Shown here: positions 1 to 33,432 of the stretch, in pieces
Layout of the letters: the number at the start of each line of letters is the position of its first letter
How positions within the stretch are numbered: position 1 is the first letter of the stretch
From: a plasmid
DNA: 64,000 bases
Direction: 5' to 3' (one strand)
NCBI RefSeq assembly: GCF_056712565.1
Contig: NZ_JBWXXM010000004.1
Notes under the pieces: model-generated
The model's input: the letters and a program-made list of their open reading frames with translations, nothing else
Database searches by the model: none
Told to the model about the DNA's origin: nothing
Made by a program: the position numbers and the translations under genes

Positions 1-156
1 ACGTGCAGCTTCAAGGATAGATGCGGCACGCGCGGCATCATCTTTAATGAATTGGTTATCAGTACCGAACTGCGCAGTGCTTGCCCAGCCAAGCACAGCT
101 TTAGAGCGTTTTGCGATATCTGCAATACGATTCTGGTATTCGCGTAAGTTACTCAA
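1..156 (-). CDS. Late structural (head) protein, first 52 codons only; P1 gene 23 position; continues past the window start
   Basis: Minus-strand frame opens at TTG (154-156) after RBS AAGGAAGAG and reads LSNLREYQNRIADIAKRSKAVLGW.. to the window edge. A late-promoter-like box lies upstream. Confidence 0.5.
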   Translation of the reverse strand, partial: MSNLREYQNRIADIAKRSKAVLGWASTAQFGTDNQFIKDDAARAASILEAAR

Positions 157-219
157 TTTACTCTTCCTTAAACACAAGGCACTTGTGTGAATCCCTTTTC
201 GGAAGAGATTTTATTGAAA

Positions 220-229
220 GTCACTTGTT
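220..229 (-). promoter_or_regulatory. Late-promoter-like box AACAAGTGAC, followed by TAAAAT-like -10
   Basis: Minus strand reads TCAACAAGTGACTTTCAATAAAAT, about 65 nt upstream of the head-gene start. The same box recurs upstream of four other late genes. Confidence 0.45.
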
Positions 230-294
230 GACTTTCTCGTGACAAGCAATTTTTTTATTTTTTTCGGGAGTAGGGGAGGAAGGTAAAATCCAAG

Positions 295-377
295 GTGAAA
301 TCGTGGCGATTTCACCTTGAAATTTTAGATGGATTTACTTTAAAAACAGTTGGTTAATAGTGAAATTTGAATGGCGA
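295..377. other. parS: parS partition site (box A ATTTCAC heptamers, box B TCGCCA hexamers, AT-rich IHF region)
   Basis: Reverse complement reads TCGCCATTCAAATTTCACTATTAAC...AAATTTCAAGGTGAAATCGCCACGATTTCAC. This is nearly the P1 parS sequence as I remember it, and it lies directly downstream of parB. Confidence 0.85.
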
Positions 378-381
378 AAGT

Positions 382-1383
382 TTAAGGCTTCGGCTTTTTA
401 TCGAGGCTCTTTCTAAGGATATGCCCAATCATCCTGTCGAGTTCTTCCTGTAGCTCTTTTGAAAGTCGATTAAACTCATAAGAAAATGCACGGCCTTTCA
501 CGCGCTTCCTTGCAAAGCGATCCTTGTCCTCAAATTTCCATAATTCAGTAACTACGGACTTATCTTTAGAACCTTTATCCGTGAGTAGTGAGGCTTCCTT
601 TGTTATCAAGCGCAGGATTTTATTTTTAACTTCATCTTCGGCCATTTCTTCAATGGATAAGATGTCGTTTATTTCCGGGGATATGTTTTGAATAAGCTGA
701 TCAAACTCTAAATTCTTGTTCCCCATTTCGTCGCCAACAGCACAAAGCGTTTTGTAGTCCGAAAAGGTTAATTCCGACTGCACAGGGAAAAGGGCGACTA
801 ATTCTTCCGGAGCACTCGCTGCCTGGAGAGCACGCGTGACCTTCGCCTGAGACAGCCCTTCTTTGGCTGCAATATCCTTCTGACTCATCCCATCATTTTT
901 CATTCGCATCAAACGCAGACCTATTTCTCGAATGCTGTGCTGCAATGCTGTCTGAACGTCTTTCGCTAAATTTTGCGCTTCCTGAACGCTGATCTCCTGG
1001 TCCGTGACTAAAACCCGCAACCCTACGTTCTCTAAGATGGCAGAAGCTCGACGCCGGGAACCATCCAAAATTTCAATTTTCCCTGTAGCCCGTCTGACAC
1101 CTATTGCAGGGTAAAATTGCTGATGCTTAATAGTGCTTCGGATACTTTTTAATGATTTTGGCGTAAGAGATGCCTGGTCACGCCCGTTGTTATGCTGATC
1201 AACAAAGGTATCGCTTTCTACCTGGTTCGGAGGTATTACCTCTTCAATAAATGTGGCCTGGCGACCAGTTGATAACTTGAATACCTGCTCGACTCGATCG
1301 CCAGAGGCTGAAGAACTATCAAATCCGCTTAATATTGAAGGATTAAGGGTTCGCCCAATTGTTGGTCTGTTTTTCTTTGACAT
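382..1383 (-). CDS. parB: Partition protein ParB (centromere-binding)
   Basis: 333 aa, the P1 ParB length. Adjacent to parS and translationally close to parA. Contains a ParB/Spo0J-like GSRRRASAI box. Confidence 0.9.
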   Translation of the reverse strand: MSKKNRPTIGRTLNPSILSGFDSSSASGDRVEQVFKLSTGRQATFIEEVIPPNQVESDTFVDQHNNGRDQASLTPKSLKSIRSTIKHQQFYPAIGVRRATGKIEILDGSRRRASAILENVGLRVLVTDQEISVQEAQNLAKDVQTALQHSIREIGLRLMRMKNDGMSQKDIAAKEGLSQAKVTRALQAASAPEELVALFPVQSELTFSDYKTLCAVGDEMGNKNLEFDQLIQNISPEINDILSIEEMAEDEVKNKILRLITKEASLLTDKGSKDKSVVTELWKFEDKDRFARKRVKGRAFSYEFNRLSKELQEELDRMIGHILRKSLDKKPKP

Positions 1384-1399
1384 GGGGGTTTCTTACTCC

Positions 1400-2596
1400 T
1401 CAGTTAGATCTGATAAATTCAATACGGTCAAAAACTGCTTTAGCAAAATCTTCCGCAGCAATTCGCGCGTTCTTCAATGCATCAGCACTACCAACATACG
1501 TTGCCGGGTTAGCTGAAATAACAGTGTCAAAAGACTCGCCGCAGCGTTCAAAACCGTCAAGGCGAGGGAGGACAACATCAAGCATATCCCCACCGAACAC
1601 TTCTTTAGCCAGGCTATGGCAATACTTATGGTCTGCCTTGTTACTCAACTTGGACATAAATCCAATGTTAGTTGCAAGCTGACACTCGCAGCCTTCATCC
1701 GAAATGAGTTTCACCAACTCAGGAAGGCGGGCAACGTATTTAAGCGATGAGTGGAAATCAACCGTTGCAGGCGGCAGAGGTGTAAACAGTATATTGGCCG
1801 AGGCCAAAGCATTTTTCAGGAAGGCGTCAAGGTGAGGACCACTATCAACGAGGATAAAGTCATAATCGCTCTTCAGCTTATCAATCACATTTTCTTTCAG
1901 GACTGCATGGATGTTCTGACCCGGTAGATGCTCATTGCACAGCTCTCTCCAATCGGATGCAATAAAGGCATCGTCAATCGACGCAGGCATAACGTCAACC
2001 CCAGGTACAACAGAAGGAACAATAAACTCCTCTAACAGCTCTTCACGGCTTACATTCTGCAACATAGCCTGTGCAGATGTTGCGTTTACGATACCAATAG
2101 AGTGTTTATGGCTTAAAAACATCGTTGCTGAAGATTGCGGATCAAGGTCAATAACCAGAATCCTTAAATCTTCCATCAGAAGATGAGGATGAGCACGCAT
2201 TGCATGCGCCAGAGAAACCGTCGATACAGTTTTTGACACACCGCCTTTAAGATTGGAGATGAAAATCACATACGCTTCGCTGTAGCGATCCCGGTATTTT
2301 GGCACTCCGCGATGTTCATATATGTCAATGATGTTCTGAATTGACATCGCATATTTCATTGAAGAGCCAGCAGGGCGTTTATCGAAAACATAACCCTTTT
2401 CTTCCATTTCACTTACGGCATAGTCAACGTTCGCACGAGTCAGTAGAGGCAATTTTGCCAGTGCCGCTTTCGCATAGACCTGGTAAAACTCGTTCGCGTG
2501 TAGCTCATCCTTTTGCAACTGTACTTGTTCAGTCAGAACATTGAGCATTCTATTTGCTCTTTGAGCAACCTTGTGAAGCTGGCTGGAATCACTCAT
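1400..2596 (-). CDS. parA: Partition ATPase ParA (type Ia Walker-type)
   Basis: 398 aa with deviant Walker A NLKGGVSKT and an N-terminal HTH extension, upstream of parB. Confidence 0.9.
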   Translation of the reverse strand: MSDSSQLHKVAQRANRMLNVLTEQVQLQKDELHANEFYQVYAKAALAKLPLLTRANVDYAVSEMEEKGYVFDKRPAGSSMKYAMSIQNIIDIYEHRGVPKYRDRYSEAYVIFISNLKGGVSKTVSTVSLAHAMRAHPHLLMEDLRILVIDLDPQSSATMFLSHKHSIGIVNATSAQAMLQNVSREELLEEFIVPSVVPGVDVMPASIDDAFIASDWRELCNEHLPGQNIHAVLKENVIDKLKSDYDFILVDSGPHLDAFLKNALASANILFTPLPPATVDFHSSLKYVARLPELVKLISDEGCECQLATNIGFMSKLSNKADHKYCHSLAKEVFGGDMLDVVLPRLDGFERCGESFDTVISANPATYVGSADALKNARIAAEDFAKAVFDRIEFIRSN

Positions 2597-2608
2597 CGAA
2601 AGTCATCC

Positions 2609-2650
2609 TTTATGCTGTATTTTTGAATTTAATTAAAAATGCTGCATAAA
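2609..2650. promoter_or_regulatory. par promoter/operator imperfect inverted repeat
   Basis: TTTATGCTGTATTTTT..AAAAATGCTGCATAAA palindrome immediately upstream of the parA start, as in the P1 parOP. Confidence 0.6.
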
Positions 2651-2736
2651 ATAATAATGTATGCGTAGATGCTTGTACATAGCATTCTCTGCATGTTTGG
2701 TTCATTTTGCACGATTGAGAGTTACAAGGAGGGCAC

Positions 2737-2757
2737 AAAAAAGCCCCGTTCAGGGGC
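2737..2757 (-). terminator. Intrinsic terminator of the T5orf172-like gene
   Basis: Minus strand shows GCCCC-TGAAC-GGGGC followed by T6, starting 8 nt after the stop codon. Confidence 0.7.
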
Positions 2758-2764
2758 ATCAGTG

Positions 2765-3574
2765 TTATTTGCTAAGAGCAGCGAATAATCGTTCGAAATC
2801 GATAGTATCTATAGCACGCGTAAGCGCCGGAAGTTCAGCCTCAAAGTACCCGTGTCGATCGTAAAAGAAGGGACCGAAGAGCGAGGCATGTTGGATTCTA
2901 CTTCGCCCCAGCCCGGACACACAGTTAAGCCCATTACCGGCTAAAAGGCTAAAAAACTTCTCTGGATTATCGTGGTAAAGCTGGGAATCAATGGTGGCGG
3001 TTAACTCTTCCATAGGGAAGCACACCCGCCCTGTATCCCAGGGATATTTAGTCCGAAGCATAAACATTGCTTTCAGCAATTCACATTGAGCGCGGATCGC
3101 GTCCGGTTCATAGCCAGATATGGAGACATAAGCCACGTCCCTCATTCCTGCGTCATCTTTGAAAGTCACGATAGAAGTAACATCCAGCTCTTTTTCGAAA
3201 GAGCAAGCAGCATCTACTGGACGCTGAAGTAAATCATTCGACTTAATGCGCTCGAGAATCCCTCCCCACATATCATTTAGATATTCGATATGAGCCAAAA
3301 CCTTATCAAGACACTCTCGTGTAAACCATTCAGTATGCCCGCCACCGACGCTTTTCTCCCACGGCGCATTCCAGGGGAAAAAGGTTGCGTGTAAAGCCCG
3401 CTCAAGATTAACCATTGCCAAACGCGTACCACGATAGACCCGTGAAAGCGCAAAATCGGGACTCACTTGTAGTCCTTTAAACCGTGCCAATGGACCACAT
3501 GAAATGCCGATTTTAAAAGTATCTCCGTTCTCTGGCACCAGAACGTAGAGGTAGTGTTGTTTCTCTTCTTGCAT
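2765..3574 (-). CDS. T5orf172 / GIY-YIG-like domain protein with an uncharacterised C-terminal half
   Basis: The N-terminus YLYVLVPENGDTFKIGIS..RFKGL..LERALHATF..HTEWF fits the T5orf172 (MUG113) pattern. The gene has its own terminator. From memory, P1 has no gene at this position. Confidence 0.6.
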   Translation of the reverse strand: MQEEKQHYLYVLVPENGDTFKIGISCGPLARFKGLQVSPDFALSRVYRGTRLAMVNLERALHATFFPWNAPWEKSVGGGHTEWFTRECLDKVLAHIEYLNDMWGGILERIKSNDLLQRPVDAACSFEKELDVTSIVTFKDDAGMRDVAYVSISGYEPDAIRAQCELLKAMFMLRTKYPWDTGRVCFPMEELTATIDSQLYHDNPEKFFSLLAGNGLNCVSGLGRSRIQHASLFGPFFYDRHGYFEAELPALTRAIDTIDFERLFAALSK

Positions 3575-3604
3575 ATCAATACCACTGCTTGATGAGAACC
3601 GCGC

Positions 3605-3865
3605 AAATGTTGACTATGCGCGAAGGTTAATGTGAATAGTTGACTATGCGCGATGTGACTACAGTCAAAAGTTGACTGTAGTCGATTTAACTCCACCAAA
3701 GATCGACTATGTAAGATATTGTCGGGAGAAACGTTGACTATACGCGATGAAATGCCCCTAAAAGCCATCTCAATAGCGACTTGCAGAATATTGACGCCAG
3801 CAAAAATCCACCAGCGTCAACGAATGTCGCCTATAGTCAACTTCTCGCTATCGCATATAGTCAAT
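3605..3865. repeat. incA-like copy-control iteron array (about 9 copies in both orientations)
   Basis: Repeated GTTGACTAT(G/A)CGCGA-type 15-mers and degenerate copies lie downstream of repA. Confidence 0.75.
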
Positions 3866-3866
3866 A

Positions 3867-4751
3867 TTATGGATTGCGCTTATGGATCTGGAAGCCGATT
3901 TTCCTGCCGTTTTTTATCTCTGAAAATTTAAGATATTCAATAGCTTCCAAATCTTTCATGGCTTTTCTGATAACGCTATTTTGCACGCTAACGGATGATT
4001 TGAGATTAAGCCTCGCTCTAAGGCGCTCAATGCTGACAGGTGCCGGGTTGGCGGGTAGAGCCTCAAAGAATGTATACAGTACCTTGGCCGTCTCTTTGCG
4101 CCCTAGTTTATCCAGCATCTTCAGCTTCAGGATTCGCTTATAGTCAACATAGTAAAGTTCAGATAGCTGTTTCTGCGGCTGGATCTCGATAACATCAAGC
4201 TCGGTATTCAGGCTGCTATATGCCAACAAGTTGACGTTAATGTTATTGAGATGACCTTTTGCCGCCGGGAAGCGGAATTTGACAACTGTCTGCTGAATGC
4301 GTGTCAGAGAGTCATCAATACTTTTACGGAACGCCTTTGAAAGGCGCTTACGTGGATAGCCGCATCGATCGGCAAACTCGGAGAATGGCAGGGTGATTAT
4401 GCCGTCATCATCAGGTGCGTAGTCAAACAACGCGGAAGTTATGCCCACCCACACCTTAAAATCAGTATCCATATCCAGGCGTGGACCATGAATTTCAATT
4501 CCCTCATAGCCTTCCTGCTCAACAATTTTGAGGCTTGATAGTTCTTCAGTTGCGTTCGTTGTGTTTGTTGTAACTGACGATCCGCGACGTAGCGCCACAT
4601 TGGTAGATTTTAAGGTTGGCACAAACACACCTAAGCGCAACAAAGCGATGGGTTGTATAGTGCTGTTGTTATTGGGCTTCAGGCTGTGGATTTCTCCTGT
4701 ATTTCCTGCAACTTCTTCAACGCTAAGGAAGCCTTTACTTTCTTCCGGCAT
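3867..4751 (-). CDS. repA: Iteron-binding replication initiator RepA (Rep_3/RepFIB-like; not the P1 IncY RepA sequence)
   Basis: Flanked by iteron arrays on both sides. ATG at 4751 follows RBS GGAGA; the ORF track extends to a TTG at 4787. The C-terminal winged-helix-like region is typical of iteron initiators. Confidence 0.8.
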   Translation of the reverse strand: MPEESKGFLSVEEVAGNTGEIHSLKPNNNSTIQPIALLRLGVFVPTLKSTNVALRRGSSVTTNTTNATEELSSLKIVEQEGYEGIEIHGPRLDMDTDFKVWVGITSALFDYAPDDDGIITLPFSEFADRCGYPRKRLSKAFRKSIDDSLTRIQQTVVKFRFPAAKGHLNNINVNLLAYSSLNTELDVIEIQPQKQLSELYYVDYKRILKLKMLDKLGRKETAKVLYTFFEALPANPAPVSIERLRARLNLKSSVSVQNSVIRKAMKDLEAIEYLKFSEIKNGRKIGFQIHKRNP

Positions 4752-4832
4752 CACGGTTTCTCCATGTGTGGCGCGGCCTGACGTCAATTTGGATGGCTGT
4801 TATCAACAGCTGTGAATATTCAGACTCTAAAA

Positions 4833-4932
4833 TCGCTTACAGTCAATGTTTCTGTCGCGTATAGTCAACAATAAATCGCGTGCAGTCAACAATAAATCGT
4901 GCACAGTCAACATAAAATCGCGTATAGTCAAT
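4833..4932. repeat. Origin iterons (5 direct copies, spaced about 21 bp)
   Basis: TCGCTTACAGTCAAT, TCGCGTATAGTCAAC, TCGCGTGCAGTCAAC, TCGTGCACAGTCAAC and TCGCGTATAGTCAAT, directly upstream of repA. Confidence 0.85.
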
Positions 4933-5043
4933 GTTGATCCCATTTCAGGCCAGTAATGACGCGGCTTACAGCGATCCGGGATCTTCTTTGGATCTTCCTA
5001 GGTTCTCTTTAGGATCTGTTTATTGGATCTATGCTGTGGATAA
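4933..5043. other. oriR-like GATC-rich unwinding region plus DnaA box
   Basis: Six to seven GATC sites within about 90 bp, then TGTGGATAA (reverse complement TTATCCACA) at 5035-5043. This is the same layout as P1 oriR. Confidence 0.75.
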
Positions 5044-5086
5044 GTTGAATAAACCGGCCAACAAAGCCGGTTGGAAGGAAGTCATA

Positions 5087-5479
5087 TTATTCTACGCTTT
5101 CGATAAGAAGACCATGTTCATAACATTTAAGCTCATCGCCTTCATACAGGAATTGGTATCCAATACCACCATTTTCATGGACATTAGGGAATAACTCATA
5201 ACTCACTGAAGAGCAAATCACACCAATGCAGCGATCAACGCCTTCTCGTTCTTCAGTGCTGAAAAAATCCTCTTCGGTAAGAACATGAGTACATTGCTCA
5301 TCAGCATAGGTCGGAAATACATGCTCGATGCAATCCGGGTGTTTTAAACCAAGCTGATCGGCAAGCTCGAAAGCATGACGGTATTGTTCAGATCCTGGCT
5401 TGCCAACAGTGATGTGCTCAATTTTGTAGATTGAAGTCGCTTTGTTGATAGTTTGCTTTACTGTTACTTTATCAGACAT
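5087..5479 (-). CDS. Hypothetical protein (P1 upfA position)
   Basis: 130-aa ORF with coding-like composition, first gene after the origin. Confidence 0.6.
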   Translation of the reverse strand: MSDKVTVKQTINKATSIYKIEHITVGKPGSEQYRHAFELADQLGLKHPDCIEHVFPTYADEQCTHVLTEEDFFSTEEREGVDRCIGVICSSVSYELFPNVHENGGIGYQFLYEGDELKCYEHGLLIESVE

Positions 5480-5490
5480 AAAAATCCCTT

Positions 5491-5823
5491 TTAGTTACCG
5501 CTGATAGCGCGGTTGTAATCATTAACGTTGCGATTCTTCCTGTTAATCCCCATCAGCATCGTTTCTGTATCGAGGATATACGCTGGCAGATCATCAAAAT
5601 ATTCACTGCTAAACTCTGGCATTCTGCACATAAATGCACTTTTGGGGGCAGGGTGGTTAACCTTTGTCGGCGTCGGCGTTAAATTCGCTGATCGACTCCC
5701 GGAGCAACCGCTGAGTGTCAGCAGGAATGCGCTGGCGAACATTACCCGCCGCAACCAGTTGTTTCTGAACTTCAGCTTTTCGTTCCATTTGCCTGTCAGC
5801 ATATTTGGCTTGTTCTGATTCAT
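5491..5823 (-). CDS. mlp: Small lipoprotein precursor
   Basis: Lipobox FLLTLSGC after a hydrophobic h-region. The start is ambiguous (Met at 5823, 5802 or 5742). The position matches P1 mlp. Confidence 0.6.
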   Translation of the reverse strand: MNQNKPNMLTGKWNEKLKFRNNWLRRVMFASAFLLTLSGCSGSRSANLTPTPTKVNHPAPKSAFMCRMPEFSSEYFDDLPAYILDTETMLMGINRKNRNVNDYNRAISGN

Positions 5824-6079
5824 TTTTCACTTCCTGGCTGTGAAAATGTTGCTCTGCTTTGTTCATCGTCTCAATGGTCTGGTTAAGATCCATTATTGAC
5901 TTATCACGTTCCTTAACAGCCTGATCAAGACTGCCAATTTTCTCCATGGCTTGCTTTAGCTGATGACGTTCCCATGCAAACCCAGCACCAACAAGTGCGC
6001 AAATCAGAACAAGAACACCAGTAGCAGCAAGTTTCTCCTTCAAAGACAAAGCTGTTTTTAACGTAGAAAAGAATGACAT
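5657..6079 (-). CDS. N-terminally membrane-anchored coiled-coil protein (P1 ppfA position)
   Basis: ATG at 6079 follows RBS AGGAGGAAG. There is one TM segment (GVLVLICALVGAGFAW), and the rest is charged and helical. Confidence 0.6.
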   Translation of the reverse strand: MSFFSTLKTALSLKEKLAATGVLVLICALVGAGFAWERHQLKQAMEKIGSLDQAVKERDKSIMDLNQTIETMNKAEQHFHSQEVKNESEQAKYADRQMERKAEVQKQLVAAGNVRQRIPADTQRLLRESISEFNADADKG

Positions 6080-6118
6080 GTCTTCCTCCTGAAGAAAAAT
6101 TATCAATGAAGTCCTTTG

Positions 6119-6907
6119 TTACTGTGCCGCTTTGTTTAATTCATCAAGAACAGAATCAGGAACCAAAGCGGCAACTGCGCTGGCTGTGCTGGCCTTATTT
6201 GCTGATGCTTCCGCAAGCGCGGTACCGATAGCATGGTTATAAGCAGTTATGGCTACGTTGGCGCTTTCATTCGCTCGTTCATACTGCTGTTGTAACGCAG
6301 TTGTGGGCGCTGTTGTCTGGTTGAAAACAACCCCAAACTGTTCAGTTGCTACTTTCAGAGATTCAATTTGCTCTTCTGTTAGTGCTGGTGGGGGAGTGGC
6401 AGTGCCGCCGCCTGAACCAGAGCCTGACGAGCTTCCTGAGCCAGTGTTAAGGGTCTGGTTAATCTCCCCCATTGCAGCGACTAAACTTGATGTATTAAGC
6501 GCGTTAACAGCGTCCTCAAGCGATTTAGTAATATTCACATCACCAATGGCAATAGAGATCGGCAGTTCTGAAACTTCTCGCTCATTAGCACGGCAGTAAA
6601 CATCCCAACCAATATCGAGTTGAAGCAGCATTGACAGATCTGCATAACCAGCCAACAGGTCCGCGTGCTTAGTTGCCAGTTCTCCAATGTTCGTTAAGCC
6701 GGTTGTGGTTGTTCTGATCGTTGAAACATAGCTGGTAATAGTGTCGGGATAGACAATTGTATCCAGAATTAATCCGGTCAATTCTTCTGCAAGCAGTTTT
6801 GCTGTGTTAGCACTGTTTCGTGCCGATGTTATGGCACCAGGTGTTTTCATCCCACCGGCGGCGGCCAATTTTTTATATGCGGATAACTGGTAGTCTTTTT
6901 CCAGCAT
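6119..6907 (-). CDS. Hypothetical protein with internal Gly/Ser linker (P1 upfB position)
   Basis: ATG at 6907 follows RBS AGGAG. Contains a GSGSSSGSGSGGG tract. Confidence 0.55.
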   Translation of the reverse strand: MLEKDYQLSAYKKLAAAGGMKTPGAITSARNSANTAKLLAEELTGLILDTIVYPDTITSYVSTIRTTTTGLTNIGELATKHADLLAGYADLSMLLQLDIGWDVYCRANEREVSELPISIAIGDVNITKSLEDAVNALNTSSLVAAMGEINQTLNTGSGSSSGSGSGGGTATPPPALTEEQIESLKVATEQFGVVFNQTTAPTTALQQQYERANESANVAITAYNHAIGTALAEASANKASTASAVAALVPDSVLDELNKAAQ

Positions 6908-6915
6908 GATATCTC

Positions 6916-7200
6916 CTAACTTACCTGAACCAGGCCGTCTCCGGACGCTACGGTAGATCCGCATGAAACAGGGTCACCAACGCATACGATCCCTTTACCA
7001 TTGACGGTAAACCATGCCCTGGTTGATATAGCTTGCCCACCGTGCGTACTGTTTCCATCGGTATGCTGTGCATATTGCTTACCATCAACTAACACTTCGA
7101 CTCCGTTGACTTTAAGTAGTGGTTCACTCTCTACAGGAGGCCTGGATGGGAATCCTCCGTGCCCCGAACAAATGCTGTCTTTTGTTGCAATACTTGCCAC
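6916..7200 (-). CDS. PAAR-like spike-tip protein (P1 upfC position)
   Basis: 94 aa with repeated HGG..VNG..V..GD and GDPVSCG..VASG motifs typical of PAAR-repeat cones. Confidence 0.55.
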   Translation of the reverse strand: MASIATKDSICSGHGGFPSRPPVESEPLLKVNGVEVLVDGKQYAQHTDGNSTHGGQAISTRAWFTVNGKGIVCVGDPVSCGSTVASGDGLVQVS

Positions 7201-7281
7201 GCCATCACCAATTATTTGCTCTGATTTTCGTTATTTTAACTTAGGTTATTTGTGGTCTGTATGGCGTTTACTTATTACAAA

Positions 7282-7298
7282 ATTGCTCTAATAAATAT
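7282..7298 (+). promoter_or_regulatory. C1 operator
   Basis: ATTGCTCTAATAAATAT against the consensus ATTGCTCTAATAAATTT. Confidence 0.7.
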
Positions 7299-7369
7299 TG
7301 TTTTTTATGTCGTATTTTCGGTACCATTCAGCCATCGCCCTTCAATGGGCATTTGTTTGGAGTCGTCAG

Positions 7370-7654
7370 ATGCAGATGGAGCTAATAAGCCGCAAGGAGT
7401 TCGATAGCCGTGTAACCAGCGGTGAACTCGACAACTTGCAGGCTATCAAGGTGAAAGAAGGCTTTTGCCTCATTGGGAATCAGAGCGGAACAAATCGCGT
7501 TTTTATGCTTCGCCGTACGGATTTGAAGCCATTTGTCTGGAAGAACGAAATTGGTCCCAGCTCATACGCTCAAACGAGGGGGTGCCACAACCTGGCCTTT
7601 TTCTACAAAGACGAGCTTTCTGTGGTTGATATTCAAGGGTTACAACATGTTTAA
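7370..7654 (+). CDS. Hypothetical protein upstream of hrdC (P1 uhr position)
   Basis: ATG at 7370 follows GGAG. The stop overlaps the hrdC start. Confidence 0.5.
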
Positions 7655-8552
7655 GCACTGGAAAAACATTACTATTTATAAACTTTCTCGTGAGGCGGAT
7701 CTGACCGACTTAGAAGATAAAAAGAAAATGATCCTTTTCACGCCATGCGGTAGTCAGGATATGGCCAAGTTCGGTTTTGTATCGCCATTTGGTGATAATT
7801 CCGAAGTTATCGCTATGCATGGAAATGGTTTTATCCTTGTTGAAGCAAAGCGCGAAACAAAAATTCTTCCCCCGCCGGTTATCCAGCGAGCTATTCAAGA
7901 AAAAATTGAAAAACTTGAGCAAGAACAAGCGCGTAAACTGAAGAAAACAGAGAAGGACTCCCTGAAAGACGAAGTTCTGCATTCTCTTCTGCCACGGGCT
8001 TTTTCAAAGTTTTCTGTTATCCAGGCGATCTACGACGGTTCAACTAAACGTATCTATATCAATGCCAGCGCGCGGCAGGCAGAGGATATGCTCGCGCTTA
8101 TGCGTAAGTCTCTTGGTTCTCTTCCTGTTGTTCCCCTGAGTGTTGAAAATCCCATTGAATTAACGCTGACCGACTGGGTACGTGATGGTAGTGCTCCACA
8201 GGGATTTCAAATGGGGGATGCGGCAGAACTTAAGGCAGTGCTTGAGGATGGCGGTATTGCCCGAGTGAAAAAGCAGGATTTGGGAAGCGATGAAATTTCC
8301 ACACACCTGGAAGCTGGCAAGCTCGTCACTAAGTTGGCACTCGACTGGCAGAACCGCATTAAATTTACACTGGACCATAACTTCAGCCTTACCAGCGTCA
8401 AATTTGCGGATGAATTGCTTGAGCAGAACTCTGATATTGATAGTGAAGATGTTGCGCAGCGACTGGACGCAGATTTCTTCCTGTTAACCAGTGAAATTTC
8501 GTGCCTGGTTGATGCTCTGGTAAATGCCCTTGGTGGAGAGGCTAAGCAGTGA
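7647..8552 (+). CDS. hrdC: RdgC-homologue recombination-associated protein
   Basis: [13 protein letters not shown].. aligns by eye with E. coli RdgC along its whole length ([45 protein letters not shown]). Confidence 0.9.
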
Positions 8553-10813
8553 AAGAGCTGTGCTATGGATCTGTTTGCAGTGGAATTGAAGCCGCGAGTA
8601 TTGCCTGGGAACCGTTGGGTATGCGTCCGGCGTGGTTTGCTGAAATCGAGCCTTTTCCATCTGCCGTTCTTGCGCACCGCTGGCCCCATGTCGCCAACCT
8701 TGGCGACATGACAAAACTTGCCAAAAAAGTCCTGGCTGGGGAAATCGAATCCCCTGATGTGCTCGTCGGGGGTACGCCTTGTCAGGCATTCAGTATCGCG
8801 GGCTTACGTGGTGGGCTTGATGATGAACGCGGCGCGCTAACTTTGAAGTATGTGGAGCTTGCAAATGCAATTGACGACAAACGGTCTGAGTCCTTCCTCA
8901 AACCGACAGTTATCGTCTGGGAAAATGTCCCAGGAGTCCTGTCATCGGCAGATAACGCCTTCGGATGTTTCCTTGCCGGATTGGCTGGAGAAGATGCGCC
9001 ATTTGAACCAGGTGATCGACCTGAATCAGGAAAAAGTAACGCGTTCTGGCGGTGGGATGGCAAAACCGGTTGCCATGCTCCAAAGTGGCCGCAGTGTGGT
9101 TGTATTTATGGACCGCAGCGAAAGGTGGCCTGGAGAATCCTTGATGCCCAATACTTCGGAGTGGCACAACGACGCCGACGCGTGTTTGTTGTCGCAAGTG
9201 CTCGAACAGACCTCGATCCCGCAACGGTACTTTTTGAGTTCGAAGGCGTGCGCCGGGATATTGCGCCGAGCCGAAAAAAGAAGGAAATCGCTTCCGCCAT
9301 TATTGCAAATGGCGCTGCAATCAGTGGCGAAAGCCTAAATCCATGTCTACACGCTGACATTCCACCCGGTATGAAATCGACGAAAGCCGTAAACGCTTTC
9401 AGGATGGCAGCATTTGGGGAATATATTGACGATGAAACCGCATCGACAGTAAAGGCAAGAGATTTTAAAGATGCCACTGACCTTGCCGTTTTTAGCAGCA
9501 CAGGAGCAGGTTTTTGGTCAGAAGGGCATGGTACATTGCGGGCACGTGAGCAAGAAAGCCATGAGCATCTTGTTACATTGGCTTTTCCTGAGCGTATGAG
9601 CGGTACACAACATGCTGCAACTAAGAATACTTCACCATCTCTAATGGCTAAAAATCCAACAGCTGTTTGCTATGAAGTAAGAAACGCAGAAGTAGCTGTC
9701 CGCCGTCTTACCCCTGTCGAATGTGAAAGGCTGCAAGGTTTTCCTGATGGGCATACGTTGATCCCGACGGAAAAGCGTAAAAAAGTTAATTCAGATGAAC
9801 TGGCATATCTTCGCAATCACTATCCAGATTTAAGCGAAGAAGAGGCCGCGATGCTTGCAGCTGACGGACCGCGTTACAAAGCGATCGGCAATAGTATGGC
9901 AATACCAGTAATGCGCTGGATTGGCGATCGGATTACTAAGGCCGTATGTCGGCAGAAAGAAGGAAGTGAAACAAAAGAGCGAAAAGTTAAACCAGCGGCA
10001 GAATTCGAACGGTCCATATTCAAATGGGCTGGTGGAAAATTTGGTGTTCTGGAACAAATCTTTCGCTATTTGCCAGAAGGGAAGCGCCTGATTGAACCTT
10101 TCGTTGGTGGCGGAGCTGTCTTCATGAATGCCGGATACCAGGAAAATCTGCTAAATGATGTGAATGCTGACCTGATTAACTTTTACAAGACTCTGCAACG
10201 CGAGGCGCATTCACTTATCACTCTGGCACATCGTTTCTTCCAGGACTATAACACACAGGAAGGATACCTGGCAGTACGGAATGCGTTTAACAAACAAGTC
10301 TATGATGATTTACATCGCGCAGCGGCGTTTTTGTTCCTGAACCGACATTGTTTTAACGGATTGACGCGTTACAACCAGGCCGGTGAGTTCAATGTCGGTT
10401 ATGGGAAGTATAAAACTCCGTATTTCCCATTACAGGAGATGGAAGCCTTCCTCGGTGCGGAAGGGCGGTCTGAGTTTGTATGCGGTGATTTTGCAGCGGT
10501 GATTGAAGCTGCCGGAGAAGGAGATGTCATCTTTTGCGATCCGCCGTATGAACCGCTTCCAAATACAGAGGGATTCACGAACTATTCCGGTCATGACTTT
10601 AAGTTTGAAGAGCAAAAACGCCTGGTGTCTCTGTTGACGGATGCTCATCGTCGAGGTGCAAAGGTTCTCATTACTAACAGTGGCGCGCCAAATATCAGAG
10701 AGCTTTATCATGACAGTGGCTTCAGAGTGGAACCTCTTTTTGCCAGACGTTCTGTGTCTTGTAAGGGGGACACTCGAGGTGTAGCTCATGACGTTTTAGG
10801 TATATTGCTCTAA
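8549..10813 (+). CDS. dmt: Bifunctional DNA methyltransferase (N-terminal C5-cytosine MTase fused to a C-terminal Dam-like N6-adenine MTase)
   Basis: 754 aa. C5 motifs: [22 protein letters not shown] and the QGFP/GNS region. Dam motifs: FKWAGGK and DPPY. Confidence 0.9.
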
Positions 10814-10833
10814 TAAATTTATTAGTGTAATAT
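10804..10833 (+). promoter_or_regulatory. Bipartite C1 operator overlapping a sigma70-like promoter (Op72/Pban-like)
   Basis: ATTGCTCTAATAAATTT overlaps an inverted copy AAATTTATTAGTGTAAT. TTGCTC (-35) and TAATAT (-10) are spaced about 16 nt apart. Confidence 0.7.
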
Positions 10834-10994
10834 CGCCTCAATGAATCGTGATTTATAGAGCGATTTAGCTGTTAGCCGCGACAGGCGCGGCGGTAAGCAT
10901 GGCTGGGCCTAGCCCTCCCAGACAAACCACCGAGTTGCCAGGTTGACCATGCGCCTAAGTGGCAACGCCGAAGTGCGTTACGAGCTTCCAGTTT

Positions 10995-11020
10995 GCCCAT
11001 CTTCGGGTGGGCGTTTTTTT
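10995..11020 (+). terminator. Intrinsic terminator with UUCG tetraloop
   Basis: GCCCATC-TTCG-GGTGGGC followed by G and T7. Confidence 0.8.
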
Positions 11021-11200
11021 CAGGGTTTTCGTCATGGTTAGCGACTTTGCGGCGGTTTAGAAACTGACCATTAAAGTAAATGCAAACGATGATCTGATGA
11101 TGGTAGCGGCCTAAGAAGCCAGATGCCACGGGGTATGAGTCGTCCCCCGTCAAAAAATCGACCGCAGAGTGTCCCCGTCTGTGTATTAGGGAACGGGGAG

Positions 11201-11282
11201 GCACAACAGGTAAGGGCGCTGGTGTGATTAACCAGATGAACGAGAAGGGGCCATCTGTTGGTCAGCGTCCTTTCCTGTTGCG
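11201..11282 (+). ncRNA. Long-stem structured element A (candidate ncRNA or processing hairpin)
   Basis: The 5' arm GCACAACAGGTAAGGGCGCT pairs with the 3' arm AGCGTCCTTTCCTGTTGCG (17 of 19 pairs, including G.U). The 43-nt apical region contains its own hairpin. Confidence 0.5.
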
Positions 11283-11485
11283 TTTTCTTTTCAGCGTAAC
11301 AGCGGTGCTTAACAGCACTTTGGGTACAGTTCCACGAATTTACGGGTATATCCCGTCATGCTGAAGGCGCTAATCACGCTGGAAGCCAGGGTTGTGCATC
11401 CCCTGTTACCGAATTGCAGCCAGGGCGCGGTGCGCCGAAAAGCATACGGAGGTGGAAGCCCTCGCCGGAGACGTACCCGGCAAGT

Positions 11486-11560
11486 GATGGTGTAGCTCAG
11501 CGGTAGAGCAGTTGGCTGTTAACCAACTGGTCGGTGGTTCGAATCCATCCACCATCGCCA
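11486..11560 (+). tRNA. tRNA-Asn (GUU), CCA encoded
   Basis: Hand-folded cloverleaf: acceptor GATGGTG/CACCATC, anticodon loop CTGTTAA, T-loop TTCGAAT. Confidence 0.9.
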
Positions 11561-11562
11561 AT

Positions 11563-11638
11563 GCCGGTTTAGCTCAGTTGGTAGAGCGCCTGCCTTGTAA
11601 GCAGGATGTCAGCGGTTCGAGTCCGTTAACCGGCACCA
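11563..11638 (+). tRNA. tRNA-Thr (UGU), CCA encoded
   Basis: Acceptor GCCGGTT/AACCGGC, anticodon loop CTTGTAA, T-loop TTCGAGT. It starts 2 nt after tRNA-Asn. Confidence 0.9.
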
Positions 11639-11749
11639 ACACAACAGGTAAGGGTATTTTGCGACGTCGGAGATCGCCGTGCTTGGCAGAGGGTTCGAAT
11701 CCCTACGAAGTACCCTTACCGTTGTGATGAATGCGCAGGCTGATGCGCG
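11637..11749 (+). ncRNA. Long-stem element B with an embedded tRNA-like core, followed by a short hairpin
   Basis: An outer stem of 16 bp with a bulged A (ACAACAGGTAAGGGTA/TACCCTTACCGTTGT) encloses GCGA-cgtcGGaga-TCGC (D-arm-like) and AGGG-TTCGAAT-CCCT (T-arm-like). A GCGCA-GGCTGA-TGCGC hairpin follows. Confidence 0.55.
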
Positions 11750-11854
11750 AAAGACATTGCAGCTATTGCGGAAAAGAGCTGTTCGGCGGGGCAATTAAAC
11801 GCCCGTGAGAGTCTGAAATAACCGCAAGCCGGAGATCAGCACCGGTCATCACAA

Positions 11855-11922
11855 CACAACAGGTAAGGGCATTCTCCCTTATGGGGCTTGGCTTAAATGC
11901 ATCGAGTGCTCTTACCGTTGTG
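11855..11922 (+). ncRNA. Long-stem structured element C
   Basis: CACAACAGGTAAGGGCATTC pairs with GAGTGCTCTTACCGTTGTG (with U.G and G.U wobbles). The apical region is 28 nt and contains a CCC-ttat-GGG hairpin. Confidence 0.5.
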
Positions 11923-12435: not shown

Positions 12436-12565
12436 CGCGGAACAGTAAAAACAATCCTCCTTAATGGTTAAACATTCCGGCGTTAATTGTTAACTGGTTA
12501 ACGTCACCGGGAGGCACTCGGCACCGCAATCTAATAAATATGTCACTTTTATTGAGGGATAACCA

Positions 12566-13000
12566 ATGTTCGGTAAATTGTTCGGCAAGAAAGTCGCTTC
12601 TGCAAAAGTAGAGCTGAAAAAAGTTGAGAATCGCGATCTGATGGAGGCCATCATCGGTGGCTGTTTGTTGGTGTCTGCCGCTGATGGTGAAATCGAAAAA
12701 GAAGAAACAGCGAAACTTGATCAGCTTGTCCGCTCTAATCCGCGTCTTAGTCATTTTGGTAACGAAATTACTGCAACAATTACCCGCTTTACCGAGCAAC
12801 TGGAAGCTGGCTTCCGTGTTGGTCGCATGAATATCCTTCGCGAAATTGAAGATATCAAAAACGATCCAAAAGAAGCGGAAGAAGTATTCGTTAACATGCT
12901 GACAATTGCAGAAGCGGACGGTGAAATCGAGCCAGCAGAACACAAAGTACTGGAAGAAGTAGGCCGTCGTTTAGGTCTTCGTGTGGAAGATTATCTGTAA
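12566..13000 (+). CDS. tciA: TerB-like (tellurite/colicin resistance family) protein
   Basis: 144 aa. Acidic repeats ..AADGEI(E/D)K/PxE.. are typical of TerB, and the position matches P1 tciA. Confidence 0.8.
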   Translation: MFGKLFGKKVASAKVELKKVENRDLMEAIIGGCLLVSAADGEIEKEETAKLDQLVRSNPRLSHFGNEITATITRFTEQLEAGFRVGRMNILREIEDIKNDPKEAEEVFVNMLTIAEADGEIEPAEHKVLEEVGRRLGLRVEDYL

Positions 13001-13164
13001 TGGCAAGCAAGGCACGTATCGCAATCGCCATTGGTTTTCTCTTGCTGTCCGTGCTGGTGGATTTCACCAGCACAATCCTGTCAGTTTTATCGGACGGGGC
13101 GTTGGTGGCAGTAGCTGTAACATTGGTATGGCCGATATTAAAAACAGCTTCTAAGGATCAGTGA
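13000..13164 (+). CDS. tciB: Small membrane protein (54 aa)
   Basis: TAATG-coupled to tciA and hydrophobic (IAIAIGFLLLSVLVDF..). Below the ORF-track cutoff, so translated by hand. Confidence 0.55.
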   Translation: MASKARIAIAIGFLLLSVLVDFTSTILSVLSDGALVAVAVTLVWPILKTASKDQ

Positions 13165-28723: not shown

Positions 28724-29364
28724 GTAACCGTTTTTACATGATGTGCTTGCGTGAAATTGTGGGTAATAACGCCTCATTCCATTGCCATAACGGCAATGGT
28801 TACAGTTCTGATATCGATCGCGCTCATGTTTACACGCTGGAAGAAGGCCAAAAAGCCTGGAATTGTGGACGAGATATCGATCAGCCTGTTTGCGCTGATA
28901 GCGTGGATGCAATGGCTGTGTGGCACGTTGATTGCCAGTACATCCCTACAGAAAGCCTGATTGAGTCAGATTGCACTGCGTATGTGGCCTACAAAAAAGG
29001 TAGCTGGAACGGCAACGATGTTTACTGGCTTCAACACGGTGGATTGCCAACAGATGACTTCAGTAAAGCGACCATCTTTAGCGTCGCCAACAAAAACGAA
29101 CCAGGAATAGTTTGGTTGCCATTTTCCATTGCTGATTCAGCAAAGCGCCGGACGTTCAATATCAATAACTTTAACCGCAGAACAATGGTTCAGGGCGCAG
29201 GTTTGGTCATGCCTGACTGGTTGAAAAAGCAGAACAGAAGAAAGAAGTCGCGAAGCGGGAAGGTGCGTTGGAATTGTCCGCATTGCGGAAAAATTACCTG
29301 GCAGTACAGCCCATATGATTTTGAAGGCTGTCGTGATTACAACTGTGAAGGATGGCGAGAATGA
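28720..29364 (+). CDS. Cys-rich hypothetical protein
   Basis: GTGA-coupled start after AAGGAGG. The C-terminus has CPHCG..(n)..C..C. Confidence 0.5.
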   Translation: MSNRFYMMCLREIVGNNASFHCHNGNGYSSDIDRAHVYTLEEGQKAWNCGRDIDQPVCADSVDAMAVWHVDCQYIPTESLIESDCTAYVAYKKGSWNGNDVYWLQHGGLPTDDFSKATIFSVANKNEPGIVWLPFSIADSAKRRTFNINNFNRRTMVQGAGLVMPDWLKKQNRRKKSRSGKVRWNCPHCGKITWQYSPYDFEGCRDYNCEGWRE

Positions 29365-29948
29365 CAATTGACTATCAGGCACTGCGAGATGCGGCAGTTG
29401 CAGTAGAAACAGAACCTATGCATCAAAATTTTGTGGCGTTTCGTATGGCGTTCACGCCATCGGTGGCACTGGCACTACTGGATGAAATTAAGCGGCTGGA
29501 AGACACAAATATTGATGCTATGTGCCGTATTGCAGAGCTTGAGACTAATCTCGCGGCGCTGGTGGCAGAGAACGCCGGACTGAAACACGCAATGGCCGTA
29601 ACTCTTGAGCATGTGTCGGTCACGGATGCAGGGCAGGCCGGAGTTGCTGCAATGATTATCAACGATGCCCTGCACCACAGCGAAACTCCAGCTACCGATG
29701 CTTTTCTAGCTGAAGTGAAGACTGAAGCACGCAAGGAAGGCGCTTATTTTGTGGCGAACAGAATGCTGGCTGCCTGGGAAGCTGGTTTTATTGATGATAC
29801 CGCGAAGAACGCCGCGGATATTGCCCGGATGATTCTTACCTCTACTGAGTTTATGGCTAATGCGCCGGAAGGCGATTTTGACCGCTCATTCTCTGATGGC
29901 GTTCTCGAAGATATCGCCGCCCAGCTTCGAAAAGGAGGCAACCAGTGA
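29361..29948 (+). CDS. Ead/Ea22-like protein, paralogue 1
   Basis: MTIDYQALRDAA..VALALLDEIKRLE..AAQLRKGGNQ. Confidence 0.6.
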   Translation: MTIDYQALRDAAVAVETEPMHQNFVAFRMAFTPSVALALLDEIKRLEDTNIDAMCRIAELETNLAALVAENAGLKHAMAVTLEHVSVTDAGQAGVAAMIINDALHHSETPATDAFLAEVKTEARKEGAYFVANRMLAAWEAGFIDDTAKNAADIARMILTSTEFMANAPEGDFDRSFSDGVLEDIAAQLRKGGNQ

Positions 29949-30697
29949 GCAAGATTGACTATCAGGCACTGCGTGAGGCGGCGGAACGTGCAATTCCAGC
30001 AATGGAACGCCTGTTAATGTTGCCAGCTGATGATGATTTGTTAAGTGAACAGGAACTTAAAGATTACGGTGTGGATATTGATGCGCTCAACGCCTTCAAA
30101 TTTCTGGCCGGACCAGAAACCGTGCTGGCACTACTGGATGAACGGGAAAGAAACCAGCAATACATCAAACGCCGTGACCAGGAGAACGAGGATATTGCGC
30201 TAACGGTAGGGAAGCTGAGAGTTGAGCTTGAGGAAGTAAAACAACACGCTGAAGAATTATCCGAAACCAAGGCTGTTCGTAACCAATGGCGGCCAGATAT
30301 TTGCCCAATAACCGGACGTGCATTTTTCATGTGGATTGAGCATCCAACATTGGGAAATGTGCCGACATATGGTGGCCCATTAGATAGTTACACCATTCCA
30401 ACAAAGGACGGTGACGGTGAGTTTTCATGTGAGCGTTACGATCATGATTTTGGCGGTTGGGTAGAAAGCGAATGTCTTGGGTTATATCTGATTGATGATA
30501 GAGAACAATGCAGGGTCTACGAACTGGAGGAACGCGTTAAGGAACTGGATGCTCGGGAAATATCGCTCCCGGAACGTAGCAGCATGCTTCATCGAACAGA
30601 TTTTCACGATGATTACCAAACGGTAATGGCATACAAAGTTTCTGAGGTCATCGCTGCAATCCGCGCCGCTGGCATCCGTATCAACGGAGGTGAGTAG
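29945..30697 (+). CDS. Ead/Ea22-like protein, paralogue 2
   Basis: MSKIDYQALREAAERA..VLALLDERERN, with a GTG start. Confidence 0.6.
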   Translation: MSKIDYQALREAAERAIPAMERLLMLPADDDLLSEQELKDYGVDIDALNAFKFLAGPETVLALLDERERNQQYIKRRDQENEDIALTVGKLRVELEEVKQHAEELSETKAVRNQWRPDICPITGRAFFMWIEHPTLGNVPTYGGPLDSYTIPTKDGDGEFSCERYDHDFGGWVESECLGLYLIDDREQCRVYELEERVKELDAREISLPERSSMLHRTDFHDDYQTVMAYKVSEVIAAIRAAGIRINGGE

Positions 30698-30873
30698 TGC
30701 GTGTGGTATGTATCAGCTTGTTACCGTACCCGACTCGTTTTTGGGCTTCTGCGCTAATTGCAAAGCCACATGTCCTGATGGCTGACAACATCATCCCGGC
30801 ACCAAAGCGCCGCCATACCGGTATTGCAGCGGCACGACGAGCAGCAAAGAGACGCAGGAGAGCAAAGCGATGA
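30697..30873 (+). CDS. Small protein with a very basic tail
   Basis: GTG after GGAGGTG; the sequence ends AARRAAKRRRRAKR. An alternative ATG lies at 30778. Confidence 0.3.
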   Translation: MRVVCISLLPYPTRFWASALIAKPHVLMADNIIPAPKRRHTGIAAARRAAKRRRRAKR

Positions 30874-31046
30874 AAAACCGTAAGGCAAAACGACTTTTTT
30901 TACAGCGGCCTGTGCGTGTGGTGGAGCTGGTTATTAGCAACCATAAGATAGCGGTACTCCATCCATTTGGTCAGGTGGCTTTTGCCGCAAAGCGTAAGCC
31001 TACTGCGTCACAGAACAGGCGGAAGAAAGGGTACGCAGTAAGATGA
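30870..31046 (+). CDS. Small basic protein, MKNRKAK paralogue 1
   Basis: ATGA-coupled; 58 aa. Hand-translated. Confidence 0.4.
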   Translation: MKNRKAKRLFLQRPVRVVELVISNHKIAVLHPFGQVAFAAKRKPTASQNRRKKGYAVR

Positions 31047-31231: not shown

Positions 31232-31232
31232 T

Positions 31233-32944: not shown

Positions 32945-33020
32945 TAAGCTGGCCTGAAGCATTTGCGATTGTAGGCGTAGCTATGGCGATTGCCGCTATT
33001 TTTATCTTCTGGGGGTAACG

Positions 33021-33254: not shown

Positions 33255-33302
33255 ATTATCAATTATGGTGCTATCACCTACGACACCGAGAGAAAATTTA
33301 TA

Positions 33303-33425: not shown

Positions 33426-33432
33426 GGTAAGT

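Follow-up and report, generated by a model that had tools for sequence, protein, structure and literature searches.

The replication region of this element raises the question of which replicon it carries when the genes are laid out as in phage P1 and the initiator and iterons do not look like those of P1. The original prediction, made for positions 3605-5043 of the window (the whole 64,000-nucleotide stretch analysed here), was that a replication module had been swapped by recombination within an otherwise P1-like genome. Our results indicate, with a probability of about 90%, that this region represents the p0111-type plasmid-prophage replicon of a P1-like phage-plasmid (Punavirus). It would replicate in theta mode under iteron control, be homologous to the R replicon of P1 and form a cassette that has been exchanged by recombination with respect to P1. 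Such exchange between p0111 and IncY replicons in P1-like phage-plasmids was correctly recognized; it is ordinary and has been published before (PMC9603915, PMC5241659). The features discussed below are collected in Table 1.

Table 1. Features of the replicon and its surroundings, in window coordinates.
Feature	Position	Strand	Details
parS centromere, P1-type	295-377	-	aligned to P1 58912-58994; ParB A and B boxes all identical
parB	382-1383	-	Pfam ParB; amino acid identity 100% to P1 ParB, 40% to P7 ParB
parA	1400-2596	-	Pfam ParA HTH_54 and AAA_31; amino acid identity 99.7% to P1 ParA
par operator and promoter (Ppar)	2594-2679	-	homology to P1 61211-61296; 100% identical to P1 up to ~2696
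Left breakpoint relative to P1 (P1 ~61315)	2696-2699		identity collapses from 100% to chance level over a few bases
Terminator-like hairpin followed by a T-run, 3' of the T5orf172 gene	2743-2757	-	consensus scan only
T5orf172/GIY-YIG-like gene, 269 aa	2765-3574	-	Pfam T5orf172; in the cassette, absent from P1
Distal incA-like iterons, in opposite orientation to those of the origin	3606-3749	-	3606-3625, 3636-3655, 3668-3687, 3699-3718 (weak, in phase), 3730-3749; spacing ~31 bp
Conserved non-iteron element, CATTGACGCTGGTGGATTT-like	3795-3815	-	kept in the window, L004 and L011; adjoining spacers diverge
Two proximal incA-like iterons, oriented as the origin copies	3825-3868	+	last copy overlaps the repA stop codon
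repA, p0111-type initiator, 294 aa	3867-4751	-	start ATG at 4751
Iteron within the repA coding sequence	4132-4151	+	weight-matrix score 26.6
Pair of DnaA-box-like sequences between iterons and repA	4800-4819		1 mismatch each
Five direct origin iterons, incC-like	4831-4935	+	starts 4831, 4853, 4874, 4895, 4916; spacing 22, 21, 21, 21 bp; upstream of repA
Six GATC (Dam) sites in AGATCC-type heptamers	4936-5029		within 94 bp
Perfect DnaA box TTATCCACA	5035-5043	-	motif match
Graded right-hand boundary, including hairpin 5058-5074 and the 3' end of upfA	5044-5217		identity to P1
upfA, P1 backbone	5087-5479	-	homology to P1 62950-63342

We found that the iterons of this replicon follow a AATCGCGTATAGTCAACATT-like consensus. 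Scanning the whole 64-kb window for TCGCGTATAGTCAAC with up to three mismatches returned 12 sites, all within 3609-4932; the chance expectation for the entire 64 kb is about 1.1, and none of 100 shuffles reached 12. A weight matrix scored the 12 sites at 24-30 bits, and the best position elsewhere in the window at 11.5 bits. The five directly repeated iterons predicted for the origin were found, spaced by about 21 bp upstream of repA, as is characteristic of a P1-type replicon. The same holds for the downstream cluster of mixed orientation (3606-3868), which reaches the repA stop codon; the predicted number of about nine downstream copies did not stand, as we count six strong copies, a weak one and an intragenic one. 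The five origin iterons are kept in plasmid pO111_2 and in two more distant relatives, L004 and L011, and the distal incA-like iterons are kept in L004 and L011. In these two relatives (RepA identity 84-85%) the iterons have been preserved, and it is the intervening spacers that have diverged. The intragenic copy is an identical 17-mer in the window, L004 and L011, with 5/5 synonymous sites kept, whereas 18/22 degenerate codons in its flanks vary. A scan of P1 revealed no equivalent iteron inside P1 repA.

The rest of the origin also conforms to the P1 plan. The genes of the 3605-5043 region all lie on the minus strand, and the outer end of the origin carries a perfect DnaA box next to a cluster of GATC heptamers, a further feature of P1-type replicons that had been anticipated. 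This cluster is the sole place in the window where six GATC sites fall within 100 bp, and in an alignment with P1 oriR it is 72-78% identical to the stretch that holds the five Dam sites there. The same stretch had been described as AT-rich, which proved wrong (53.5% AT vs 51.7% in the whole window). At the position of the two DnaA-box-like sequences between iterons and repA, both L004 and L011 have a perfect TGTGGATAA. Neither the iterons nor the DNA adjoining them yielded a persuasive sigma-70 promoter for repA: the repA strand offers no match of at least 9/12, only 8/12 candidates, and every iteron contains a TTGAC -35-like motif on that strand.

Altogether, the order, orientation and spacing of these elements mirror P1 oriR, repA and incA, in agreement with the predicted layout, and both the gene order and the position in the genome are those of the P1 R replicon. 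P1 likewise has five origin iterons at 21-22 bp, a spacing of two helical turns, and DnaA boxes both at the outer origin end and between iterons and repA, together with a cluster of GATC heptamers. Its incA locus consists of six inverted copies (copies 1-6, ~31 bp apart) and three direct ones, compared with four strong and one weak inverted copy and two direct copies in the window, and P1 incA copy 9 abuts the repA stop codon much as the proximal iteron of the window overlaps it. The window has 12-13 iterons against 14 in P1, p0111-type replicons have one outer DnaA box where P1 and the Cronobacter phage JK004 have two in tandem, and the window, unlike P1, has an iteron inside repA and the T5orf172 gene between incA and parA.

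Unlike the layout, the sequence of the iteron separates the two systems, being AATCGCGTATAGTCAACATT in the window and GATGTGTGCTGGAGGGAAA in P1. The latter, the 19-mer given in the original prediction, is the genuine P1 iteron: it occurs 13 times in P1 oriR and incA when up to five mismatches are allowed, and two annotated copies, incA copy 3 and incC copy 12, exceed that limit. In the whole window it has zero matches at up to three mismatches, so that the iteron expected of an IncY replicon is absent, as had been claimed. The initiator differs as well. RepA is 42% identical to P1 RepA over 272 aa (E = 9e-71), a value also reported in PMC5241659 and far from the near-identity to P1/P7 RepA expected of IncY. 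Hence, the possibility that this is simply P1's own IncY replicon, with the P1 iteron misquoted in the original prediction, is refuted by the iteron scans and the RepA identity and retains practically no probability: gene order and layout are indeed those of P1, but GATGTGTGCTGGAGGGAAA is real and missing here, the initiators share only 42% of their residues, and a megablast search with the region returns no P1 reference record.

The view that RepA is not the P1 protein was therefore correct, whereas the idea of a different kind of initiator was not. RepA matches phrog_775 (E = 2.6e-134) and, in Pfam, Rep3_C at 27.3 bits, over the cut-off; Rep3_N scores 22.0 bits, just under its cut-off of 22.4, and a scan of NCBIfam with the window RepA, the T5orf172 protein and P1 RepA was uninformative, giving zero matches. 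By these alignments, RepA is a diverged homologue within the Rep_3/RepFIB-like family of P1 RepA and not an unrelated initiator, as expected of a P1-type replicon. Alignment to RepFIB-type initiators points to one protein family: the RepFIB or 'RepB family' Rep_3 initiators of Enterobacterales plasmids and SSU5-like phage-plasmids are 44-49% identical to the window RepA. That of SSU5 is at 45.7%, and many proteins of Klebsiella and Salmonella plasmids are in range. A Proteus relative with a RepA 53% identical has a similar plan, comprising a DnaA box, iterons, the rep gene and, downstream of it, an array of repeats. Nevertheless, the iterons of these RepFIB-like relatives differ (GTTGATGCTAGTCGAT in the Proteus one), as do their flanks, and none is similar enough to qualify as the donor.

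Assignment to the p0111 type rests on nucleotide identity to pO111_2 and to elements typed in the literature. Plasmid pO111_2 (AP010962) is the PlasmidFinder reference for p0111; in record NC_013370.1 of this plasmid, from E. coli O111:H- 11128, the cassette is 98.3% identical to ours. Across 3500-5100 the window is 97.6-99.9% identical to pO111_2, RCS47, SJ46, JL22 and phi456, and by megablast the replicon region is 98.3%, 97.6% and 98.3% identical to JL22, RCS47 and SJ46, respectively. RepA is identical to that of RCS47 (100%) and 99.7% identical to those of JL22 and SJ46; in all five elements it is 99-100% identical to the window's, and the T5orf172 gene is common to all. In pO111_2 this gene is annotated as two ORFs, but in a tblastn search the window protein aligns with it over the full length (98.5%). 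Their replicons show no difference of substance from that of the window; the accessory regions elsewhere do differ. JL22 has been typed as p0111, with repA'(p0111) and one unknown gene, gp57, standing in for repA(IncY) (PMC9603915). The p0111 module is present in 404 PLSDB plasmids, and the p0111 replicon in 408 of 5,426 complete E. coli genomes. P1-like phage-plasmids with this replicon are common and often carry resistance genes, and p0111-type is the label that an annotation should bear; it is not a discovery. A literature search combining 'p0111' and 'iteron' found no paper on these iterons and no experimental work on the replicon, and the iteron and origin anatomy mapped here is apparently undescribed in the literature searched.

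The flanks of the cassette are 97-100% identical to P1, which agrees with the predicted replacement by recombination, but the extent given for it was too small. From ~2699 to 5067 the window cannot be aligned with P1, save for the ~100-bp end with the DnaA box and GATC sites (72-78%), and the cassette thus extends past 3605-5043 to take in the T5orf172 gene as well. The comparison indicates that the whole origin-repA-incA cassette is exchanged relative to P1 within conserved flanks, one lying just upstream of the par promoter and the other around the DnaA box and upfA. The left breakpoint is sharp, and the junction recurs in about 400 p0111-type plasmids: a 124-bp sequence spanning it is present in 400 PLSDB plasmids, compared with the 404 that have the module. 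On the right the boundary is graded, with identity to P1 of 72-78% up to ~5067, 86-94% up to ~5217 and 96-100% past that. The T5orf172 protein matches phrog_2876 over its full length, and its N-terminus matches phrog_681, an 'endonuclease'. Among phage records, the gene is present in exactly the 12 with a p0111 RepA, and L011 codes for a 44% homologue in the same slot. An independent recent insertion of this gene is accordingly disfavoured.

On the other side of the left breakpoint, the partition module is that of P1, not P7, in ParA, ParB, parS and incB specificity, as predicted from a parS nearly identical to that of P1. The five substitutions that distinguish the two parS sites all lie between the ParB boxes, two of them inside the annotated IHF site, and ParA is 57% identical to P7 ParA. 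ParA and ParB of RCS47 have been called P7-type (PMC5241659), which would suggest free reassortment of rep and par modules. We reject this notion, since both RCS47 proteins are 99.7-100% identical to those of P1 and of the window.

By analogy with P1, RepA monomers would bind the five origin iterons and, together with host DnaA, open the adjoining methylated GATC region. Origin-bound RepA may also repress its own promoter, autorepression presumably acting through the iterons. The downstream iterons, and probably the intragenic one too, would titrate RepA and pair with the origin ('handcuffing'), keeping the copy number low. Since neither RepA nor the iterons are those of P1, the specificity of replication incompatibility should differ from IncY, and that of partition is still P1's.

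How did the two cassette types arise? One answer, following the P1-centred account of JL22 as a P1 that 'acquired foreign DNA' (PMC9603915), is recent capture from an unrelated, non-phage plasmid, with the IncY state of P1 being ancestral. Related RepA proteins (44-53% identity) are indeed widespread on Enterobacterales plasmids. Moreover, L004 is a 91-kb E. coli contig with the same iterons and an 85%-identical RepA, and the 8.9 kb around its repA match nothing else in the phage collection beyond the replicon. We nonetheless consider recent capture unlikely. No donor nearer than 85% was found, and L011, whose P1-like backbone is distant (68-73% nucleotide identity to P1), has a p0111-like cassette in the same slot, with a RepA 83.7% identical to the window's and the T5orf172 homologue. 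Equally distant is JK004, which has an IncY-like cassette and a RepA 85.3% identical to that of P1. Within each type, then, divergence of the cassette roughly follows that of the backbone, and therefore both types look old in the P1-like gene pool. The exchange described here is stated relative to P1; within the E. coli clade it may have run either way, both types being found in distant P1 relatives. The dimorphism of the rep cassette is apparently older than the E. coli P1 clade.

The pay-off proposed for the swap was that p0111-type and IncY-type P1-like prophages could stably share one cell. In its favour, RepA and iterons differ completely in sequence from those of P1, so that no cross-reaction is expected in incompatibility of the incA/incC type. 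Both replicons do occur together in two complete E. coli genomes, on separate records, as known by inclusion-exclusion from the counts. However, about 27 would be expected (408 x 359 / 5,426), a figure that assumes independence and that population structure could bias, and the observed number is about 13-fold lower (Poisson P(<=2) ~7e-10). A shared P1 partition specificity (incB) brings about partition-mediated incompatibility. Given that ParB (100%), ParA (99.7%) and the parS boxes are as in P1, incompatibility through partition is still to be expected; the c1 region is also ~94% identical to P1 at the nucleotide level, so immunity would further oppose double lysogeny. Our search of the literature on coexistence of p0111 and IncY elements found nothing specific. 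The coexistence inference is thus weak, and stable sharing of a cell as the benefit of the exchange, while conceivable, seems doubtful. The co-occurrence data argue that, in practice, two P1-like elements do not become compatible just by a change of replicon.

A dimorphism older than the E. coli P1 clade bears on the upkeep of incompatibility diversity in phage-plasmids. Going further, and as a speculation whose full form strikes us as improbable, the IncY- and p0111-type cassettes could be two ancient alleles of one locus that segregate throughout the P1-like phage-plasmids, exchange always taking place at the same boundaries (par promoter; DnaA-box/upfA). The p0111 allele would then have a functional intragenic iteron and a co-diverging T5orf172/GIY-YIG-like gene, ~30 bp past the last incA iteron, as a possible homing-type driver or competitor-exclusion nuclease. 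If this were true, the role of T5orf172 could help explain both the near 50:50 frequency of the two alleles and the scarcity of cells with both types.

The replicon is laid out like that of P1, as the original prediction had proposed, and the iterons bear this out in spacing and orientation. In P1 as in the window, five origin iterons are spaced at 21-22 bp, the proximal downstream iterons lie in the origin orientation, with the last one reaching the repA stop codon, and the distal downstream iterons run opposite to the origin copies at intervals of about 31 bp. The 19-mer given for P1 in that prediction indeed marks the annotated incC and incA iterons of P1; the window lacks it. The initiator is different in sequence, with 42% identity to P1 RepA over 272 residues (E = 9e-71), but it is a homologue rather than a new kind of protein. 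Together with this identity, its matches to the Pfam Rep3 domains and to phrog_775 place RepA, by sequence, as a diverged member of the P1 initiator family. A value of 42% identity to P1 RepA was reported earlier (PMC5241659). The par module is of the P1 type, as had also been claimed, given that ParB and ParA are 100% and 99.7% identical to those of P1 and every ParB box of parS is identical. ParA and ParB of phage RCS47 are described as P7-type in PMC5241659, but in the sequences compared (RCS47 63201-72800) they are 99.7-100% identical to P1 and to window 382-2596, and 57% and 40% identical, respectively, to P7.

Order of genes and sites in window 1-6000, where every gene lies on the minus strand.
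Feature	Position	Strand
parS	295-377	-
parB	382-1383	-
parA	1400-2596	-
T5orf172-domain gene (269 aa)	2765-3574	-
Iteron cluster downstream of repA	3606-3868	
repA (294 aa counted from the ATG preceded by GGAGAA)	3867-4751	-
Five direct iterons	4831-4935	
GATC cluster	4936-5029	
Perfect DnaA box	5035-5043	
upfA	5087-5479	-

The predicted module swap is correct, yet the literature already describes it as the p0111 replicon. Across the region, phages phi456, RCS47, SJ46, JL22, and Ro157c2YLVW, along with several records that bear the label 'P1', show 97.6-99.9% identity to the window, and RepA is 99-100% identical to the RepA of these phages. The cassette is present in 404 PLSDB plasmids and in 408 of 5,426 complete E. 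coli genomes; in pO111_2 of E. coli O111:H- 11128, its identity is 98.3%. P1-like phage-plasmids carry two replicon types, IncY (31/55) and p0111 (24/55), and in JL22 repA (IncY) is replaced by repA' (p0111) and the unknown gene gp57 (PMC9603915). Both repA-IncY and repA-p0111 serve as P1 markers (2025 preprint). In complete E. coli genomes, 8 of 415 places with a p0111 replicon are on chromosome records, such as those of ST2747 (CP007392, CP007393) and strain 131 (CP093011), which may represent integrated P1-like elements or assembly artefacts.

Comparison with P1 delimits the exchanged unit. Window 1-2698 aligns to P1 58618-61315 at 99.1% identity, and window 4949-11731 to P1 62807-69594 at 97.6%. 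The left boundary is sharp (2696-2699) and immediately upstream of the par promoter. On the right, the boundary is gradual, with no alignment possible below 4945 and identities of 72-78% at 4945-5067 (GATC heptamers and DnaA box), 86-94% at 5068-5217, and 96-100% beyond. In a five-way alignment, the DnaA-box/GATC segment bears signatures specific to each cassette type, with one outer DnaA box in p0111-type replicons versus two in tandem in IncY-type replicons, and shared indels that also set the types apart, which assigns this segment, on alignment grounds, to the cassette. Hence, the unit runs from about 2699 to 5067-5217, taking in the complete origin and repA as well as the incA-like cluster and the T5orf172 gene. 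Full-length matches to a 124-bp stretch across the left junction occur in 400 PLSDB plasmids, compared with 404 carriers of the module, and 145 further records match its P1-side half alone. The near-complete overlap with module carriers points to a single left junction, inherited or spread via flanking homology, rather than to repeated independent insertions. Elsewhere, short gaps interrupt the 97-99% P1 alignment at 11731-11905 and 12440-13031, corresponding to P1 69.6-70.7 kb (tRNA, plp/upl, tciA area). Window 26900-35700, in the P1 pap-lxr area, is variable relative to P1, and at most 45% of it is covered by any single phage record; among its genes are Ea22-like, DUF551, and ASCH-domain genes common to RCS47, SJ46, P7, and many Stx/lambdoid phages.

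The T5orf172/GIY-YIG-like gene, which separates the incA-like iterons from parA, shows strict linkage to the p0111 cassette: the 12 phage records that carry it are those with the p0111 RepA, and no record with an IncY RepA has it. In pO111_2 it is annotated as two ORFs, and tblastn of the window protein matches end to end (98.5%). Its sole distant homologue (44% amino acid identity) lies in L011, a 95.7-kb Logan contig (ERR2144811), where it occupies the same slot (6124-6936) in a ~70%-diverged P1-like backbone. In both lineages, the start codon lies about 30 bp past the last distal iteron.

With up to three mismatches allowed, the 64-kb window contains 12 matches to the iteron pattern TCGCGTATAGTCAAC, all within 3609-4932, against 1.1 expected by chance; none of 100 shuffles reached 12. 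With a weight matrix built from these 12 sites, they score 24-30 bits, versus at most 11.5 bits elsewhere in the window. A weak extra iteron at 3699-3718 is in phase with the ~31-bp array. Extended, the iteron consensus reads AATCGCGTATAGTCAACATT, in which TCG and AGTCAA do not vary. Six GATC sites crowd into 94 bp, a density reached nowhere else in the window; the AT-richness predicted for this stretch did not hold (53.5% versus 51.7% for the whole window). No description of p0111 iterons was found in the literature searched, and the iteron map is thus a small addition.

Two DnaA-box-like sequences, each with one mismatch, lie at 4800-4819 between the origin iterons and repA. P1 oriR has a second set of DnaA boxes, which this pair parallels. 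A perfect TGTGGATAA is found at the matching place in L011 (~4955) and in L004, a 91-kb E. coli contig (~3940). Between the proximal and distal iterons, a non-iteron element at 3795-3815, CATTGACGCTGGTGGATTT-like on the repA strand, is conserved across all three sequences.

Unlike P1 repA, the p0111-type repA contains a strong iteron, at 4132-4151 (+). Its 17-mer is identical in the window, L004, and L011, with synonymous positions kept in 5 of 5 cases, whereas 18 of 22 flanking degenerate codons for the same amino acid vary (hypergeometric p ~0.0016). This conservation argues for a functional DNA site. A Proteus relative (L006, 53% RepA identity) has a perfect intragenic iteron at another position (4424-4442) and in the opposite orientation. 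By homology with P1, RepA would bind the origin iterons and, with DnaA, open the methylated GATC region, while the downstream iterons would titrate RepA and handcuff the origin. Because each origin iteron contains TTGAC on the repA strand, RepA binding plausibly also blocks a putative repA promoter; no convincing promoter candidate was found in or beside the iterons.

That the swap lets two P1-like prophages coexist is doubtful, because the par module is P1-type, immunity is retained, and co-occurrence is below expectation. Partition-mediated incompatibility (incB) is established P1 biology, and since ParB, ParA, and the ParB boxes of parS are P1-type, it should persist towards P1; immunity remains a further obstacle. 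Among complete E. coli genomes, the p0111 cassette was found in 408 records (408 genomes), the IncY cassette in 360 records (359 genomes), and the two concatenated as one query in 768 records (765 genomes). By inclusion-exclusion, no record and only two genomes carry both, versus about 27 genomes expected under independence, an expectation that population structure may bias. Coexistence is possible, yet strongly depleted.

Relatives of RepA fall off stepwise, from 99-100% to 85%, then 53%, and then a broad field of RepFIB/RepB-family proteins at 44-49%. Around repA of L004 (85%), an 8.9-kb stretch matches the phage collection in the replicon only; it follows the same iteron plan (five origin, one intragenic, two direct, and four inverted copies), with iterons kept and spacers diverging. 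The P1-like backbone of L011, which shares only 68-73% identity with P1 and with the window, carries the same iterons, and has repA (83.7% to the window's), T5orf172, parA, and parB in window order. Cronobacter phage JK004 is about as distant from P1 (68-73% nucleotide identity in the region), its RepA is IncY-like (85.3% identical to P1 RepA), and the T5orf172 gene is absent. The flanks of JK004 and L011 are 70-88% identical, whereas their cassettes are unalignable save for a ~100-bp DnaA/GATC segment, and the left boundary again lies immediately upstream of the par promoter. Within the E. coli clade, either type may have replaced the other, and the P1-centred wording of acquired foreign DNA is not established. 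The same dimorphism recurs at the same locus in distant P1 relatives, p0111-like in L011 and IncY-like in JK004. This recurrence suggests an old polymorphism common to different clades, and both cassette types thus look old within the P1-like gene pool.
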